Shown: piece by piece, positions 1 to 26,800 of the stretch
Numbering within the stretch: the first letter of the stretch is position 1
Layout of the letters: every line of letters begins with the position of its first letter
Assembly: GCA_027008775.1 (NCBI GenBank)
Contig: JALVDV010000003.1
Location: 12,340-76,339, forward strand
Length of the DNA stretch: 64,000 bases
Direction: 5' to 3'
DNA from: Candidatus Moraniibacteriota bacterium
GTDB taxonomy: Bacteria; Patescibacteriota; Minisyncoccia; Moranbacterales; DUUL01
Program-made: the position numbers and the translations under genes
Notes under the pieces: model-generated
What the model was told of the DNA's origin: nothing
Seen by the model: only the letters and a program-made list of their open reading frames with translations
The model's database searches: none

Positions 1-1773
1 ATGGCCACTCTCTACCGAAAATATCGCCCCCGGACTTTCAGCGAGATCAGCGGACAAGAATACGTTCTGCAAACCTTGACCAACGCCATCAGAAACAATC
101 GCTTCGGCCACGCCTACTTATTCACCGGCCCCCGCGGAACCGGTAAAACCACCACCGCCAGAATATTTGCTAAAACAATCAACTGTTTAAAACCGCTTAC
201 CAAAACCAAAAAATCCCACATTAAAATAGAACCTTGCAACAAGTGTAAAAATTGCCAGATAGTCAACAAAAACCAAGCTATTGACATCATAGAAATAGAT
301 GCCGCCTCTCACACCGGCGTGGATAACATCCGCCAGCTTAAAGAAGCTATTGATACTCCACCTTCCCATCTGCGCTACAAAGTCTATATTATAGACGAAG
401 TGCACATGCTTTCCCTGGGCGCCTTCAACGCCTTGTTAAAAACACTGGAGGAACCGCCCCAACACACTATTTTCATCTTGGCTACCACCGAACTTCACAA
501 AGTTCCGGAAACAATAATTTCCCGCTGTCAACAGTTCAACATTAAACCCCTCACTAAAGAGGAGATCATTAAAAAACTGTCCTCTATCGCCAAAAAAGAA
601 AAAATTAAATTAGACAAGGAGGCCTTGAATTTAATCGCCACTGAAGCCAATGGCGGAATGCGCGACGCCGAATCACTTTTGGACCAACTCATTTCTTTAC
701 ACAATCGCCAGGAAATTAACGACGAAGATGTTCGCCACATTTTAGGATTATCTTCTCGTCAAAGTATTTTAAAACTAACGGAAAAAATTGCTGAGAAAGA
801 TCTAAAGAAAACTTTGGAAATTATCAATAATCTGGAATTCAGCGGAACCAATTTAAAATCATTCACTCAACAACTACTTAATTTTATGCACGACCTGCTT
901 CTTTTCAAAACTACCGGCGCTCAAAACGAAATTCTGCAAAAACAACTGACAGCCGAAGAAATAAACGACTTGGAAAAACTGGCTAAAAAATTCTCCCTGC
1001 CGGAGCTTCTAAAACTAACTGAGCTTATCCAGCAAAGTTTGGAACAAAGTAATTACAGTGAAATTCCTCAATTATCACTGGAAATGGCCGTTTTAAAATT
1101 TCAGCTAGTGTCAACTTCTTCCAAAAAAGAAGAAAACTCTTCCTCCGAACAAGACTCTAAAAAAAAAGTCCTTTCTCCGCAAAAGAAGAAAAACGAGAAA
1201 ATAACAAAAAACGAAATGGTTGAAGATAACCCGGTTCAACCCAAAAAAACACCCGGACCAAAAAGAAAAAGTTCCCAAGCGTCAACAGAAAAAGAGTCTA
1301 CTCAAACACCAGAAAGCGAATCAGACAAAACAATAAAATCAAATCAGTCAATCAGTATCAACCAGTTTCTGCAACAATGGAATACAATTTTAGATGAAGT
1401 AAACAAAGTCAACAGAAGTTTATTCGCCTTTCTTAGCGTCTCTATTCCTCAAAATATTCAAGATGGTTCTGTTTGGATTAAAACTAAGTTTTCCTTCCAT
1501 CAAGAACAACTTTCCAAACCGGAAAACAAATTGACAATAGAAAAGGTCTTTGCTAGAATACTGCGAGTGCCATTGAGGGTCAGATTTATTGTGGATGAAA
1601 CAAAAACAGAAGAAAAATCGCCAACAACAGAAACTATTCCGGAAACAGAAAAACCCTCAACAACCGAAAAGGAAACCGCGCCAGAAGATGACTCGCTCAA
1701 CAGCCAACAATCAGCAGAAGAAAATTTATTATACGAAGCTCTTCGTCAAGTTGGTGGTAGAATTGTGGAATAA
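1..1773 (+). CDS. dnaX: DNA polymerase III subunit gamma/tau
   Basis: N-terminus MATLYRKYRPRTFSEISGQ...FTGPRGTGKTTTARIFAKTINC is the AAA+ clamp-loader Walker A and sensor; 590 aa with a low-complexity K/E/S-rich linker. Confidence 0.95.
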   Translation: MATLYRKYRPRTFSEISGQEYVLQTLTNAIRNNRFGHAYLFTGPRGTGKTTTARIFAKTINCLKPLTKTKKSHIKIEPCNKCKNCQIVNKNQAIDIIEIDAASHTGVDNIRQLKEAIDTPPSHLRYKVYIIDEVHMLSLGAFNALLKTLEEPPQHTIFILATTELHKVPETIISRCQQFNIKPLTKEEIIKKLSSIAKKEKIKLDKEALNLIATEANGGMRDAESLLDQLISLHNRQEINDEDVRHILGLSSRQSILKLTEKIAEKDLKKTLEIINNLEFSGTNLKSFTQQLLNFMHDLLLFKTTGAQNEILQKQLTAEEINDLEKLAKKFSLPELLKLTELIQQSLEQSNYSEIPQLSLEMAVLKFQLVSTSSKKEENSSSEQDSKKKVLSPQKKKNEKITKNEMVEDNPVQPKKTPGPKRKSSQASTEKESTQTPESESDKTIKSNQSISINQFLQQWNTILDEVNKVNRSLFAFLSVSIPQNIQDGSVWIKTKFSFHQEQLSKPENKLTIEKVFARILRVPLRVRFIVDETKTEEKSPTTETIPETEKPSTTEKETAPEDDSLNSQQSAEENLLYEALRQVGGRIVE

Positions 1774-19777: not shown

Positions 19778-22477
19778 CTACAATTCGCTCCAATTTTTAC
19801 CCTGACTAACATCCACCACTAAGGGAACCTTTAATTTATAAACTCCTTCCATTAACCGCTTTATTTTTTGTCCAAATTTCTCTGCCTCTGTTTCCGCCAC
19901 CTCCACAATCAATTCATCATGAATTTGCAGTTCCAACTTGGCTGTCGGAAATTTTGGCAAAAGCTCTTTGCCTATTTTTACCATAGCCATTTTCATAATA
20001 TCGGCCGTCAAACCCTGCATCGGAAAATTTATTGCCGCCCTTTCTTCCGCCGCGCGCAACCTACCATTGTCAGAATTAATATTGGGAAAATAACGTCGGC
20101 GCCCCAATTCTGTTTCCGCATAGCCCTTTTTCTTAACCTCCTCCTTAATTCTCTCCAAAAAATTAACCAATTTTGGAAAATTCTTTTTATATTCTTCCAT
20201 AAAAAATTCCGCCCTCTCCTTACTTACTCCGCTATCTCTCATAAAACCGTAAACTCCCATTCCATAAAGCATGCCAAAATTTAAAGATTTGGCTTCTCGT
20301 CTTTGTTCTTCCGTCACTTCTTCCGGTTTCACTTTGTTCACCCAGGCAGCCGTGGAACGATGAATGTCACCATTTTCACGAAAAACTTTTATCATCCTTT
20401 GATCACCGGACAAATGAGCCGCCACTCGCAAATCAAATTGGGAATAATCAGCCGAAAGTAAGACCTTTCCTTCTTCCGCCACAAAAGCTTTTCTGATTAG
20501 ATGAGCCACTCGCCCGTATTTGGGAATATTCTGTAAATTAGGATTAGTGGAAGAAAGCCGACCGGTAGCCGTTCCCATTTGATTAAAAGTGGTATGAATT
20601 CGACCATCCTTCTGCACCAACCTTGGCAAAGGATCGGCATAAGTGTTTTTTAATTTGGCATATTCTCTAAACCTCTCAATGTATTTAATAATCTTGTGCT
20701 TTCCGCGCAACCTGGCCAACTGTTCGGCATCGGTTGAGTAGCCTTCCTTGGTTCGTTTAATATCGGTCGTTGGCAATTTCAGTTTTTCAAACAACACCTT
20801 CGCCAATTGCGCCGGAGAATTGATATTGAATTCTTCTCCGGCCAATTGATAAATTTTCTTCTCTAAAACAGACAACTTCTTATCCAAAAAAACGGAAAGT
20901 TTATCCAAAACACCTTTATCAACTTTGATACCGTTTAATTCCATTTTCGCCAAAACTTTTGTCAAGGGCTGTTCTATCTTTGAAAAAAGCTTAGCTATTT
21001 TTTTGTACTCTTTTGCTTGTAAACGCTTGCGATAAAGTGATGCCAGCCGACCAACCCAGCCAGCCTTCTCGGCCACCAATTTTTTTTCTTCCAAACTCAA
21101 TTCACCCCACAAATCCGACTGACGTTTCGCCGGTAAATCATTTTGAAAAGTGGCGCCAAACTCCAAAAAAATTAACTTCTCCAGCTTCACCTTGCTTATT
21201 TTTCCCAAAAGAAAAGACACTAAAAAAATGTCAAATTGCTTGCGAGCTGTTTTTTGTAAATCAAAACCAAATTGGTAATCAACTAATTCCAGAAACAACT
21301 TTCCATCAAAAACATATTTTTTTATACCTCCGGATTGAAACAAATCCTTCCCTTGTTTTATCAAATCACTTTTTAGAAAATAAGTTTTCTGACCACCGGC
21401 AAACATGCCCAGTCCCAGTGGTCGTGCCGAATAAAATTTTTCCGTATCCGTAGCCAAAAAATAAGAAAATTCTTTTTTCCGTTTAATCTTTGCCAACAAT
21501 TTCTGCCACTCCATCTCCGAGCTTATTTCCTGAAACTCAAACTTCTTTTTCATTTTTTTCATCGCACCTGTTAAAGAAGAATTTAAATAACCATTTTTGT
21601 CACTAAACAATCTCTTGTACAAACTCTCAAATCCCATTTCTTGAAAAAATTTCCCCAAACCATTCTTGTTTAAATTCTCTACCTTGGCTTTTCCCAAATC
21701 CAAATCGTCAATCGGCACATCGGTTTTAATCTTGGCCAAACTATAACTCAAAAAGGCCTCTTTTTTGTGTTCTAACAATTTCTTTTTAACCGCCGGCTTA
21801 TCTATTTTATCCAAATTTTTGTAAATGTTTTTCAGGGAACCGAATTTCTGTAAAAGAGCCACCGCCGTTTTTTCGCCAATTCCTTTCACCCCCGGAATGT
21901 TGTCGGAGGGATCACCCCGTAAAGCCTTATAGTCAACAATCTGCTCCGGCTTTAGATGAAATTTTTCCTCCACCGCTTTTTCATCGTAAATCGCCGTGTC
22001 TTTTACTCCCCGCCGCAAAGTAAAGATACTGGTATCTTTATCTACCAACTGAGCCAGATCCATATCCCCGGTAACAATCAAAGTGTCCAGCTTTTTCTCA
22101 ATCTCCGGATTCTTGGAAATTGTGCCCAACACATCATCCGCCTCATAACCCTTCTTGGTGTAAATCGGAATTCCGTAAGCTCGCAACATTTTTTGCGCCA
22201 GAGGAATTTGTTCATATAAATCATCGGGCGCTTTTTTACGATTAGCCTTGTATTCTTTAAACTCCTTGTGCCGAAAAGTCGGACCTTTAACGTCAAAAGA
22301 GGCGATAATGTAATCCGGTTTTACCTTTTCCATCATAGAAAATAAAGTCAAAGCAAAACCGTAAACCGCCCCGCTGGGACGACCATCTTTGGTCGTCAAG
22401 AAAGGTAAAGCGTGATAAGCCCGATGCACCAAAGCATTACCATCAATAAGAGCAAGAACTTTTTTCTTTTTATTCAT
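19778..22477 (-). CDS. polA: DNA polymerase I
   Basis: 5' nuclease domain (LALIDGNALVHRAYHA), polymerase motifs A/B/C (DYSQFDLR, RREAKSLNFGMLYG, HDELIVEV); the track ORF extends to a GTG at 22492, the ATG at 22477 is the likelier start. Confidence 0.95.
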   Translation of the reverse strand: MNKKKKVLALIDGNALVHRAYHALPFLTTKDGRPSGAVYGFALTLFSMMEKVKPDYIIASFDVKGPTFRHKEFKEYKANRKKAPDDLYEQIPLAQKMLRAYGIPIYTKKGYEADDVLGTISKNPEIEKKLDTLIVTGDMDLAQLVDKDTSIFTLRRGVKDTAIYDEKAVEEKFHLKPEQIVDYKALRGDPSDNIPGVKGIGEKTAVALLQKFGSLKNIYKNLDKIDKPAVKKKLLEHKKEAFLSYSLAKIKTDVPIDDLDLGKAKVENLNKNGLGKFFQEMGFESLYKRLFSDKNGYLNSSLTGAMKKMKKKFEFQEISSEMEWQKLLAKIKRKKEFSYFLATDTEKFYSARPLGLGMFAGGQKTYFLKSDLIKQGKDLFQSGGIKKYVFDGKLFLELVDYQFGFDLQKTARKQFDIFLVSFLLGKISKVKLEKLIFLEFGATFQNDLPAKRQSDLWGELSLEEKKLVAEKAGWVGRLASLYRKRLQAKEYKKIAKLFSKIEQPLTKVLAKMELNGIKVDKGVLDKLSVFLDKKLSVLEKKIYQLAGEEFNINSPAQLAKVLFEKLKLPTTDIKRTKEGYSTDAEQLARLRGKHKIIKYIERFREYAKLKNTYADPLPRLVQKDGRIHTTFNQMGTATGRLSSTNPNLQNIPKYGRVAHLIRKAFVAEEGKVLLSADYSQFDLRVAAHLSGDQRMIKVFRENGDIHRSTAAWVNKVKPEEVTEEQRREAKSLNFGMLYGMGVYGFMRDSGVSKERAEFFMEEYKKNFPKLVNFLERIKEEVKKKGYAETELGRRRYFPNINSDNGRLRAAEERAAINFPMQGLTADIMKMAMVKIGKELLPKFPTAKLELQIHDELIVEVAETEAEKFGQKIKRLMEGVYKLKVPLVVDVSQGKNWSEL

Positions 22478-22489
22478 TGTTTTTACAAT

Positions 22490-22543
22490 CACGAATCTAC
22501 AAATATTGTATTCGTAAATTCGTGGTTTATTTGTAGATTCGTG
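22490..22543. promoter_or_regulatory. 16-bp inverted repeat CACGAATCTACAAATA...TATTTGTAGATTCGTG just upstream of polA
   Basis: Read directly; an extra ATTCGT copy lies in the spacer. Confidence 0.4.
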
Positions 22544-22761
22544 GTAATAATTACTTCTACTTTTAGATAATATTGTGGATTACAGACTTTCAACATTTTG
22601 CCTTTAGCTCTCTTATACTATCACAAACCACCAAAATCCGCACTAAAATTTAACAGTCCATCCGGAAAAACCTAAAATTAAAACATCAAGACAGAGTTCT
22701 TTTCACAAAAAATTTTTCAACCTCGCCTCGGAAGAGAAAACCGAGGCGGAAAGGAGAAATC

Positions 22762-22917
22762 GGTGAAAAAAAAGAAAATAAAGAAGAAAAGAAAAAACAA
22801 AAAAACAAAAGCCTCCGCTCATTCTTGCAATCTCTGCAACAAGCCACTGCAACCGGGGCAATATTCTCCCTGTCCCAAGTGCAGGAACACCGCCGTATAT
22901 GCCTGCCGCTGGAAATA
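22762..22917 (+). CDS. small basic C4 zinc-ribbon protein (51 aa), unannotated
   Basis: GTG start 7 nt after AAGGAG; translation MKKKKIKKKRKNKKTKASAHSCNLCNKPLQPGQYSPCPKCRNTAVYACRWK has CxxC-N13-CxxC; followed by a terminator; absent from the ORF track only because it is under 60 aa. Confidence 0.55.
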
Positions 22918-22931
22918 AGTTTACAAACAAA

Positions 22932-22965
22932 CCCCGGCCAAAGCATCAAGCTGACCGGGGTTTTC
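22932..22965 (+). terminator. rho-independent terminator after the small zinc-ribbon ORF
   Basis: CCCCGG-N17-CCGGGG followed by TTTTCAC. Confidence 0.5.
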
Positions 22966-23060
22966 ACAAAATGGCAATTATATAGATGCCCCCGCCCTTA
23001 CAGGCGGGGAATTCCCGCTGATTTAAACATCAAATCGCAAACTACACCCCACCCGTCTTC

Positions 23061-23160
23061 TTCGCGCCATCATTATCTCACGACCGTGTCATTATGAACA
23101 GCATACTATATGCGCTATTTTTCTGCGCTTCATCATCTCGCGGTCGTGTTATTATGAACA
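23061..23160. repeat. two ~38-bp imperfect direct repeats ending in ATTATGAACA
   Basis: gcgccatcattatctcacgaccgtgtcattatgaaca vs gcgcttcatcatctcgcggtcgtgttattatgaaca; the internal 10-mer is inverted between copies (CACGACCGTG vs CGCGGTCGTG). Confidence 0.5.
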
Positions 23161-23339
23161 AATTCCAAAAACCCGCATCCATCAAACGCAAACCAATACC
23201 GATTTGACAAACAAGCCCAAAAAGCTTAAAGCTAAATTGATAATTTTTTATTTGGGTTATTTTATTGTTTTCCATTCAAGGTATTCTCGTACTTTTGTTT
23301 TTAAAAAAATTTTTACTTTTGATAAAGAAATGTTTTGCT

Positions 23340-23660
23340 GGTGTTTAAAGATAATTTCTTCTTCAACAACATCAGCAAAATAAGCCAAGCTTTTTAAAGC
23401 CTACTATCTTTTGGTTTAACCCCATAAACCAATAACCAAAGGTTTATGGATTTTTTGCTCCAGTCTGATTTAACAAAATTTTTAATTGCTTCTTTAATTT
23501 CTTTTTTAGAATAATTTTCCCTTAACCAATCAATCGCCTATTCAGTGCCAAAATCAAGAATGTTCTTAATAATAATTTGCTTGTCTTTTTCTTTGTCCAT
23601 CGTTTCTAAATCATAAGACCACAAAAACAGCTCCAAAATACAGGTAGCTTCCTATTTTTT
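23340..23660 (-). pseudogene. possible frame-disrupted gene remnant
   Basis: Minus-strand conceptual translation gives ...MDKEKDKQIIIKNILDFGTE*AIDWLRENYSKKEIKEAIKNFVKSDWSKKSINLWLLVYGVKPKDSRL* with an in-frame TAG; no intact ORF. Confidence 0.25.
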
Positions 23661-23834
23661 CTTACCACTTTGATTGTTTCTTTTGTACTCCAACATACAG
23701 TTATTGTAGTATTTTTCAGACCATTTTCAACTCTTGCCCCAAAAAGTTTGCTAGAGAAAAAAGAATATTTTATACTGAAGAACAATGCTTAAAGGCTTTG
23801 GCAAATTTTAAGTTTCAAATTAAAATTATTTCTT

Positions 23835-26800
23835 ATGTCAAATAAAAAATTCACCCATCTCCATGTTCACACCCACTACAGCTTACTGGACGGATTGGGA
23901 AAAATTGATGATATCTTAGACCGCGTCCAAGAACTGGGCATGAACTCCATTGCCATTACCGACCATGGAGTAATGTACGGTGTTCCCGAATTTTATGATA
24001 AAGCCACTCAAAGAGGCATCAAACCAATCATTGGTTGTGAAATGTACCTGGCGCCCAATGGCTTGGAAAACAAAAGAGCCGGCATTGATGACACCCGCTA
24101 TCACCTTACCCTTTTAGCCAAAGACAACATCGGTTACAAAAACTTGATGAAATTGGTCACCATCGCCCACTTGGAGGGATTCTATTACAAACCTCGTATT
24201 GACATGAAAGTTTTGCGAAAATATTCCCGGGGACTAATAGGTATGAGCGGTTGCCTGCAAGGAGAAATCGCTCAACTGGCCATCAGCGGAAAATACAAAA
24301 GCGCCAAAAAAAAGGCCTTGGAATATCAAGAAATTTTCGGAAAAGACAACTACTATTTGGAACTGCAACACTTGCCCAACCTTCCGGAACAAAAAATAGC
24401 CAATGAACAACTCTTGAAAATATCCAAAGAAACCGGCATTCCGGTGGTAGCCACCGCCGATCTTCACTACATCTACCCGGAAGATGGAGAAATTCAAGAC
24501 ATTTTGGTTTGTATTCAAACCGGTCAGAAACTGAGTGATACTAACAGAATGTCTATGACTGACCATAAACTCCACCTGAAATCTCCGGAAGAAATGTGGC
24601 GGTATTTCAAAGATATTCCGGAGGCCCTGGAAAACACCCAAAAAATCGCCGAGAAATGTAATGTCAATATTGAATTTGGTAAAACCAAATTGCCAACTTT
24701 CAAAGTTCCCAAAGGTTACAGCGCCAGTAGCTATTTACGTGAACTTTGCGAAAAAGGAATTAAAGAGAGATATTTGGACAGAGGTTTGGAATTCACCGAA
24801 AAACATCGTCAACGTTTGGAATATGAACTGGGCATCATCAAAAAAATGGGCTTTGACGCCTACTTTCTTATCGTAGCTGATTTCATCAACTGGGCTAAAA
24901 AACAAAAAATTGCCGTTGGCCCCGGTCGAGGTAGCGCCGCCGGCAGTTTTGTTTCTTACCTAACCAAAATTACAGATATTGATCCCATTAAGTACGATCT
25001 GCTTTTTGAACGTTTTCTTAATCCTGACCGTATTTCCATGCCTGATGTTGATGTTGACTTTTCCGATCATCGTCGCGATGAGGTTTTGGCCTACGTCCGC
25101 AAAAAATATGGCGATGACCACGTTGCCCAAATCATCACTTTCGGAACAATGGCTGCCAAAGCTGCCATCCGAGACGCCGGCCGAGTTCTAGGTGTGGAAT
25201 ATTCTTACTGTGACAAACTTTCCAAAATGGTGCCCGATTTCACTAAACTTGACGAGGCTCTCAAAACCAGCAAAGAACTGGCTCACGAATACGCCAATAA
25301 CCCCGACGCCAAGAAAATCATTGATGCCGCCAAAAAATTGGAAGGAGTGGCTCGTCATGCCTCCGTCCATGCTTGCGGAGTAGTCATCACCGCCAAACCG
25401 GTAGTAGAATACTCCCCTTTGCAATATATGAGTGGCAAAGGCAAAAATGAAAATGCCATCGTCACCCAATACGCCGCCTCTTCCAAAGCTTCTTACGTGG
25501 AAAAAATCGGGCTTCTGAAAATGGACTTTCTCGGCTTGAAAAACTTAACCATCATTGAAAATGCCATTTCTATCATTAAAGCCACCACTGGAGACATTAT
25601 TGAGGTCGACAAAATTCCTCTGGATGATCCCGTAACCTACAAACTTTTCCAACGAGGGGATACTACCGGAATCTTTCAACTGGAATCCGCCGGAATGAAA
25701 AGATATCTCAAACAACTGAGACCGACCACCTTTGAAGATATTATTGCCATGGTCGCCCTTTATCGCCCCGGCCCAATGGAATGGATTCCCGACTTTATCG
25801 CCGGCAAACATGGTAAAAAGCAAATTACCTATCTTCACCCCAACTTGAAACCGATCTTGGAAAAAACCTATGGAGTAGCCGTTTACCAGGAACAAGTAAT
25901 GCAAATGGCCCAAGTTATTGCCGGCTTCAGCGGAGGCGAAGCCGATGTTCTCAGAAAGGCCATGGGTAAAAAAATTCCGGAAATAATTGCCAAGGAAAAA
26001 ATAAAATTTATCGAGGGAGCTCAAAAACAAGGCCTTGATAAAAAGTTGGCCGAAAAAATATTTTCTTTCATTGAACCATTCGCCGGCTACGGTTTCAATC
26101 GTTGTTTAACCGGCGACACCTTGATTACAGACGCAAAAACCGGAGAACAACGAACGATAGAATCTCTTTTTGAAGATTATAAAAACAAGAAAAAACTACC
26201 AAATGTTTTAACTTTAGATGAAAAAACGTCCAAATTAAAAACCGGCAAAATCACAAAGGTTTACAATAACGGAATAAAGAAAGTTTATAAATTGAAAACC
26301 GCTTCAGGAAGAGAAATTGTTGCCACTTCTAATCACCCCTTCTATACTTTCTCCGGTTGGAAGACCTTGAAAAATTTAAAAACCGGAGATTTCATCGCCG
26401 TAGCCAGAAAATTACCAATTAAAAATAAGCAAAAATTTCCAATTAAAAATTTCCAATTGATTGTCCTCGGTTATTTATTGGCTGAAGGAAATTTATGTCA
26501 CCCCCACGGTTTCTATTTCTACTCTACCGACAAATTAGAATTGGAAGATTATACCAACAATTTACTGAAATTTAAAAACACCAAGGCCACTAAAAATACC
26601 AGCAAATCAACTACATCCATTTATGCCGGTAGAATTAATCTAAACAAAGAATCAGAAGCAGTTAAATGGATAACCTCTCTCGGACTTAAAGGACAAAAAG
26701 CAACTAACAAAAAGTTTCCTTCCTTTGTATTTAAGCTAAACAACTCTCAACTATCTTTATTGCTGGCTAAAATGTTTCAAGGAGATGGCTGTATTAATTT

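Follow-up and report, generated by a model that had tools for sequence, protein, structure and literature searches.

A probable lysine-rich zinc-ribbon microprotein gene in the polA–dnaE spacer of a Patescibacteria-like genome

Several ribosomal proteins combine a basic tail with a zinc ribbon. Phage HNH endonucleases of the class described in PMC3592412 have zinc-ribbon accessory modules. Modules of this kind in front of an HNH nuclease domain are believed to bind DNA. One-domain zinc-finger micro-proteins are described in archaea, namely HVO_2753 and HVO_0758 of Haloferax, and Brz (PMC6562870, PMC11241148, PMC10716476 and PMC2253796). Full-text literature searches on small zinc-ribbon proteins of Patescibacteria turned up no paper, and nothing pertinent came from one on bacterial small ORFs with a Lys-rich zinc ribbon.

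Here we describe a 51-codon ORF of comparable build in the window, which is the whole 64,000-nt stretch of DNA that was analysed. A first-pass annotation had proposed an unannotated small zinc-ribbon gene at this place. The gene is probably real, because a metagenome protein of the same size and build (P0003) resembles its product and because the cysteine motif is enriched among the intergenic ORFs of the genome.

The reading frame and its surroundings

The ORF is located in a 1342-nt spacer between the divergent genes polA and dnaE. The features of the region are as follows.

19778-22492, minus strand: polA, 904 aa
22650..22678, plus strand: promoter-like site TTAACA-17 nt-TAAAAT, a 10/12 match to the consensus, about 85 nt 5' of the start codon
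22724..22748, plus strand: leader hairpin of 8-9 GC-rich bp with a 9-nt loop, ending 2 nt 5' of the Shine-Dalgarno site
22751..22756, plus strand: Shine-Dalgarno-like AAGGAG, 6 nt 5' of the GTG
22763..22918, plus strand: 51-codon ORF with a GTG start and a TAA stop at 22916-22918
22929..22964, both strands: downstream GC-rich hairpin, preceded by an A-tract and followed by a T-tract, starting 11 nt past the stop codon
23835-28781, plus strand: dnaE, 1648 aa

The host genome measures 0.93 Mb in 11 contigs and is 96% complete. Its nearest named PolA relatives belong to Moranbacteria-type Patescibacteria (58-59% identity), and the sequencing runs with near-identical DNA are labelled as hydrothermal vent metagenomes; among the 10 runs listed, none is an RNA run. 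GC skew of the plus strand is strongly negative throughout the window (1-64000; -0.06 to -0.43 per 2 kb). At 1648 aa the dnaE ORF is far above the usual length, and the middle part of its translation, which opens with a Cys and closes with His-Asn-Ser, reads like a putative inserted intein. A 23-nt inverted repeat (87% complementary) at 22483-22550 spans the start of polA and could be an operator; related copies are found at C5:88042-88079 and C5:88563-88603.

The GTG of the 51-codon ORF is the sole ATG, GTG or TTG in its 78-codon stop-to-stop frame. Start codon and peptide are as first annotated; the AAGGAG is also present, at 6 nt rather than 7 nt from the GTG. The predicted product has 51 amino acids, a mass of 5.9 kDa and a pI of 10.4, with 14 Lys, 3 Arg and no acidic residues. 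Its Lys-rich head occupies residues 1-16 (11 Lys and 1 Arg) and its zinc module residues 22-50, with the pattern C-x2-C-x11-C-x2-C-x7-C-R-W. The cysteines are laid out as C22-x2-C25-x11-C37-x2-C40-x7-C48 and the knuckles read CNLC and CPKC. Two CxxC knuckles with a short spacer between them are what characterizes a generic C4 zinc ribbon, and the product has both. The two CxxC pairs had been noticed in the first-pass annotation with a spacer of 13 residues; the spacer has 11, and there is a fifth Cys at residue 48. An AlphaFold2 model built from a two-sequence alignment was of middling quality, with a mean pLDDT of 67 and 72-77 over residues 21-50, and only one short strand and two short helices were called in it.

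The Lys-rich head (22766-22810) is encoded by long A runs, with A8 right after the GTG. Long A tracts can make ribosomes or polymerases slip. Logan contigs of run X2 seemed to be cut at 22766-22813, in the A-rich head region. Opposite the ORF there are indeed two antisense frames, as had been remarked, at 22686..22967 (93 aa) and 22703..22930 (75 aa). Neither had a match in a Pfam search, and both had a lower codon-usage score than the 51-codon ORF.

The promoter-like site is weak evidence for transcription, because nine such sites occur in the region compared with 4.8 +/- 2.3 in shuffled sequences. The leader hairpin, with arms at 22724-22731 and 22741-22748, has a folding energy of -16.8 kcal/mol (z -2.1), and 8/200 shuffles were equally stable. 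A hairpin next to the ribosome binding site had been reported in the first-pass annotation and is there, with arms that begin at 22724 and not at 22722. A second copy of it was sought across the genome and none was found.

The hairpin downstream of the ORF is stronger. On the plus strand, 22929-22963 folds at -18.1 kcal/mol (z -5.1) and 0/200 shuffles were as stable; on the minus strand the energy is -22.8 kcal/mol (z -4.7) and the U-rich tail is longer than on the plus strand. The T-tract on the plus strand has only four T (22961-22964), and for this reason the hairpin was not called by the terminator scan. The earlier description of a hairpin plus T-tract 3' of the ORF holds for the hairpin, at 22929-22963, and less well for the short T-tract. 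Since the minus strand folds even better, the element has the look of a bidirectional terminator.

A GC-rich island (22810-23230) of 42-57% GC, within flanks of 18-35%, begins with the zinc-coding part of the ORF and runs on into non-coding palindromic repeats. One of these is a 46-nt GC-rich palindromic REP-like element at 22982-23027, of which the genome has seven copies with 91-96% identity. The other copies of the element in the host genome (G000) are at

C1:95807-95845
C1:127458-127485
C1:127961-127998
C11:27196-27241
C10:14633-14671
C5:35153-35184

Two copies on the same strand flank an IS200-like Y1 transposase gene at C1:127492-127929 (145 aa; PF01797, E 1.1e-27), and the solo copies resemble scattered ends or REPs of that element. 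Further on, at 23070-23160, two 31-nt units 60 nt apart form a palindromic pair that gives a long imperfect hairpin (-29.2 kcal/mol, z -3.8). The contig has a comparable pair at C3:77084-77167, 3' of a 375-aa ORF and about 750 nt past the end of the window. The pair at 23070-23160 could represent another repeat family or a site where a protein binds.

Homologues and distribution

An exhaustive HMMER scan of 1.84 billion representative proteins with the ORF product gave three matches at E <= 0.001, designated P0002, P0003 and P0004. P0002 (769 aa, E 2e-8) is repetitive and scores through nine repeated short stretches, and we regard it as spurious. P0003 (E 5.6e-4) is a 52-aa metagenome protein, represented by one sequence on a 1917-base contig. 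Over the zinc part, 17/30 residues are identical between the ORF product and P0003 (pairwise E 2e-11). The Lys-rich head, all five Cys, W50, P28, L29, G32, S35 and P36 are kept, and the two proteins have in common the motif C-N-L-C-x2-P-L-x2-G-x2-S-P-C-x-K-C-R-x4-Y-x-C-R-W. Radical substitutions separate the two at most of the other aligned positions, and the differences in length preserve the frame; P0003 has a head seven residues shorter and eight more residues after CRW. In the reverse direction, tblastn of P0003 against the whole 0.93-Mb genome picked the ORF at E 7e-8, with the next match at E 1.2. Because structural residues are kept while others change radically and length changes preserve the frame, the pattern of conservation, taken from this single homologue, is that of a metal-binding protein domain and not of neutral DNA.

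P0004 (225 aa, E 7.3e-4) has three similar tandem modules in front of a phage-type HNH endonuclease domain. It matches phrog_2255 (HNH endonuclease) at 1.8e-8, with relatives in 33 phage records. The ORF product aligns with two of its three modules at pairwise E 3e-8 and 8e-7, and P0003 likewise matches the modules of P0004 at E 4e-5. A search with residues 1-125 of P0004 returned P0004 alone. The ORF product had no match to phrog_2255, no alignment at E below 1 with the related jumbo-phage protein at LR756511.1, and no tblastn match in 50,697 phage records.

Other collections added little. A word-indexed search of 5.8 billion proteins gave no candidate with the ORF product; with alignment A1 it gave 23 candidates, of which only P0003 was accepted. 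Pattern scans of genome and viral contig collections with the same alignment yielded no confirmed match, and the best hit among PDB sequences was a MYM-type finger at E 0.087. Among the curated families of Pfam and NCBIfam, none reached its cut-off. The best Pfam family was DZR, at 14.7 bits against a gathering cut-off of 27.3 (E 0.035), and the best NCBIfam family NF011481 (HVO_2753-type), at 16.1 bits against 61. The YacG DNA gyrase inhibitor family NF002362 scored 10.2 bits against 79 (E 0.46). Ribosomal-protein families of Pfam and NCBIfam gave no match at E <= 10.

The ORF was then sought in related genomes. In 60 relatives nothing significant was found (best non-self E 0.013). The 318 other genomes of the order likewise yielded nothing significant; eight weak matches had E values of 0.0014-0.0096, where about three are expected by chance, and the two that were inspected (L055 and L060) contained no similar ORF. 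A sample of 400 other genomes across the phylum gave no match at E <= 0.001. At 101 PolA-anchored loci, 43 from metagenomes and 58 from genomes, the best E values were 0.12 and 0.14.

The nearest loci were inspected individually. In L012, one of the two closest metagenome relatives (PolA N-terminus and DnaE 76% and 80% identical) and the nearest one with polA and dnaE still syntenic, the divergent polA–dnaE pair is kept, and the spacer of about 350 nt has no such ORF. In L011, the closest metagenome relative (80% identical), two different overlapping small ORFs lie 5' of polA in the equivalent place and the same orientation. One encodes 71 aa with CxxC-x9-CxxC and follows GGAGG; the other encodes 60 aa with a Lys-rich head and CxxH…CxxC. 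BLASTP gave no alignment of either with the ORF product at E below 9, and we treated them as analogues, not orthologues. Both L011 ORFs (64-418, minus strand) share a Lys/Gly-rich stretch and adjoin a G7 run; a frameshift or an assembly error may have broken a single double-zinc-ribbon gene in two. DNA similarity between the spacer and L011 or L012 was not detected at E below 0.08. Among the 43 metagenome loci, only L011 and L017 have a Cys-motif small ORF within 1.6 kb 5' of polA, and that of L017 is unrelated. Lack of frame conservation in related genomes was among the outcomes that the first-pass annotation named as counting against it, and this is largely what was seen, with no significant match in the 60, 318 and 400 genomes and no such ORF in L012; the result speaks against a ribosome- or nucleoid-associated housekeeping role.

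Population variants of the host were found in metagenome runs. Contigs of runs X2 and X4 carry the ORF unchanged. In run X3, a variant contig changes codon 43 from Thr to Val (T43V, two bases), has synonymous third-position changes in codons 44 and 45, and carries a 5-nt insertion at the stop that leaves the TAA in place. These changes are few and are compatible with coding constraint. Contig 9 of X3 has seven differences over 22305-22888, and the three among them that are listed all lie outside the ORF.

Coding statistics and competing explanations

The genome contains 6772 ORFs of 30-110 aa, and ORF length by itself is uninformative. The motif CxxC-x8-20-CxxC was found in 7/1417 intergenic ORFs of this size and in 2/5355 shadow ORFs, that is, those overlapping long ORFs. 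Chance alone would give about 0.5 in the intergenic group, and the enrichment over shadow ORFs is about 13-fold. The seven are L32, Z-type S14, an 88-aa ORF, a doubtful 46-aa ORF, the ORF at 22763-22918, and two ORFs at C9:20105 and C10:50834. A strong Shine-Dalgarno site precedes three of the seven, including 22763-22918, compared with a background of 1.5-2.7%. The ORFs at C9:20105-20299 (L076, 64 aa) and C10:50834-51013 (L075, 59 aa) are small zinc-ribbon ORFs that each follow a strong AGGAGG-type site; their Pfam matches are sub-threshold and to generic zinc ribbons.

AGGAG or GGAGG was present before the first start of 79/5355 shadow (1.5%), 35/1417 intergenic and 19/697 long ORFs (2.7%), and near any start in the first 80 codons of 54/454 long frames. 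Shine-Dalgarno use in this genome appears to be very low. Because such sites are rare here, in front of genes too, the AAGGAG is weak evidence for the ORF.

The codon log-odds of the ORF is -0.196, compared with -0.19 +/- 0.14 for shadow ORFs and +0.18 +/- 0.14 for gene windows. The zinc part has -0.35, which only 0.4% of gene windows reach. When synonymous choice alone is scored, the ORF has -0.057 and shadow ORFs average -0.06. Among small zinc ribbons of the same genome, L32 has -0.11, S14 -0.07, and the other zinc-ribbon ORF with a Shine-Dalgarno site in front (59 aa) -0.18. The codon test is weak for small zinc-ribbon proteins because L32 and S14 score low too. The zinc part has 56% GC and 63% GC3, compared with a gene average of 41% in either measure; 0.8% of gene windows reach the former value and 1.1% the latter. 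This atypical composition fits recent foreign origin and non-coding DNA equally well.

With the codon score of the ORF at the shadow mean, it has to be asked whether the frame is open by chance, with an A-rich tract read as Lys, a GC-rich and repeat-laden spacer that happens to lack stops, and a Cys pattern and P0003 match that are coincidence or reflect shared non-coding DNA. The GC-rich island that continues past the ORF into REP-like repeats agrees with such a reading, as do the scarcity of Shine-Dalgarno sites in the genome and the absence of the ORF from relatives; the frame has no gene call in the 5.8-billion-protein collection, and the E value of P0003 is just 5.6e-4, with a score that comes partly from the low-complexity Lys head. 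We nevertheless regard chance as unlikely, though by no means negligible. Against it stand the motif enrichment in intergenic over shadow ORFs, a P0003 match that is reciprocal and unique and keeps five Cys and the Trp among radically different positions with in-frame length differences, the independent match to modules of P0004, and the preserved frame of the X3 variant. Alternatively, the island at 22720-23230 could encode a structured RNA without coding function or consist of clustered palindromic repeats, with the ORF incidental to it. The GC contrast with the flanks (45-57% against 18-35%) points that way, and folding exceeds that of shuffles at 22690-22990 (z -4.1) and, on the plus strand, at 22920-23240 (z -5.1). 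However, Rfam had nothing at threshold (the only match with E below 1 had 22 bits against a cut-off of 49.5), no tRNA or tmRNA was found, the structure 3' of the ORF is explained by the REP-like repeat and the palindromic pair that recur in the genome, and the conservation with P0003 follows a protein pattern. A non-coding island is in our judgement very improbable indeed, and the frame at 22763-22918 is quite probably a translated gene.

If it is a gene, it may be asked whether it is whole. A gene for a free-standing HNH homing endonuclease could have entered the polA–dnaE spacer and later decayed, leaving its first zinc module as a remnant rather than a functional unit. The likeness to the three N-terminal modules of P0004 speaks for this, as does the foreign composition, and the spacer exceeds that of L012 (1342 against about 350 nt) by roughly the size of such a gene; in addition, P0003 has a Gln where the ORF has its TAA, and reading through the stop extends the resemblance by a few residues. 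Yet tblastn of P0004 against 22300-24000 recovered only the ORF, with no further modules or HNH domain (other matches E >= 0.9), and a search of the whole genome for phrog_2255 gave no match. P0003, moreover, also stands alone, with 52 aa and the same Lys head, which argues for a solo form shared by both and not a local accident. Decay from a homing endonuclease is accordingly a very unlikely origin. The first-pass annotation had suggested instead a ribosome- or nucleoid-associated factor whose translation is controlled by the hairpin beside the ribosome binding site. A basic tail with a zinc ribbon, as in several ribosomal proteins, and the position of the leader hairpin next to the Shine-Dalgarno site would suit such a factor. 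The product matches no ribosomal family, though, searches of 60 relatives, 318 genomes of the order and 400 of the phylum did not find it, the syntenic site of L012 is without it, and the genome already has L32 and S14 as zinc ribbons. Control by the hairpin finds no better footing, for the centroid fold leaves the Shine-Dalgarno site unpaired and outside the hairpin, whose stability is only marginally above that of shuffles. We consider a conserved factor of this kind extremely unlikely; the gene is probably very rare.

Proposed origin and comparison with known systems

We lean towards reading the ORF as a lineage-restricted, horizontally acquired gene for a nucleic-acid-binding zinc-ribbon micro-protein that is related to phage HNH accessory modules. 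It would be transcribed from its own promoter, with termination at the downstream hairpin, and would yield a 5.9-kDa product with a disordered Lys-rich head followed by one zinc-ribbon module. The four knuckle cysteines would hold one zinc ion, the Lys tail would add non-specific affinity for DNA or RNA, and the product would serve as a small factor that binds nucleic acids. A mobile element or phage is the probable source, and horizontal acquisition is preferred to an ancient core function because the composition is GC-rich and atypical of the host, relatives do not have the ORF, and the spacer is expanded and laden with repeats.

A bolder proposal is that the ORF and P0003 are the first members of a new family of stand-alone zinc-ribbon micro-proteins with a Lys tail, that this family descends from the DNA-binding modules of HNH homing endonucleases in phages and was acquired by a Patescibacteria-like bacterium of ultra-small size, and that the polA/dnaE spacer is a preferred landing or birth site for fast-evolving small DNA binders. 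The idea of a preferred site arises because L011 has two different zinc-ribbon ORFs there, either preceded by a Shine-Dalgarno site or Lys-rich. We think this proposal decidedly unlikely as a whole. Such small DNA binders might act on the shared control region of polA and dnaE.

If the gene is real, it is one more unannotated micro-protein in a genome of less than 1 Mb, where each gene counts, and motif enrichment relative to shadow frames can find small zinc-ribbon ORFs even where codon statistics fail. It opens no long-standing question: the gene is rare, its function is predicted from sequence, and the organism is uncultivated, which makes direct tests hard.

Besides P0003, three groups of known proteins are comparable with the putative product. 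Like bL32 and Z-type uS14, both of which are present in this genome with a low codon score, it is small and basic and has CxxC…CxxC; in contrast to them it is not conserved in relatives, and there is no sequence match. With the N-terminal modules of phage HNH proteins (P0004 with phrog_2255, and the class described in PMC3592412) it shares the spacing C-x2-C-x-K-P-x5-Y-x2-C-x2-C-R followed by a Trp/basic stretch. The ORF differs from P0004 in having one module instead of three, with an HNH nuclease domain neither in it nor after it; it has the P0004-type N-terminal Cys4 module, a likeness of one module only. HVO_2753, HVO_0758 and Brz resemble the product in being stand-alone proteins of less than 70 aa with one zinc-binding module that are often unannotated. 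HVO_2753-like proteins (NF011481, PF07754) have C(P)XCG knuckles, whereas the present product has CNLC and CPKC, is bacterial and carries a Lys tail, which makes it an analogue of these archaeal micro-proteins rather than a member of their family.
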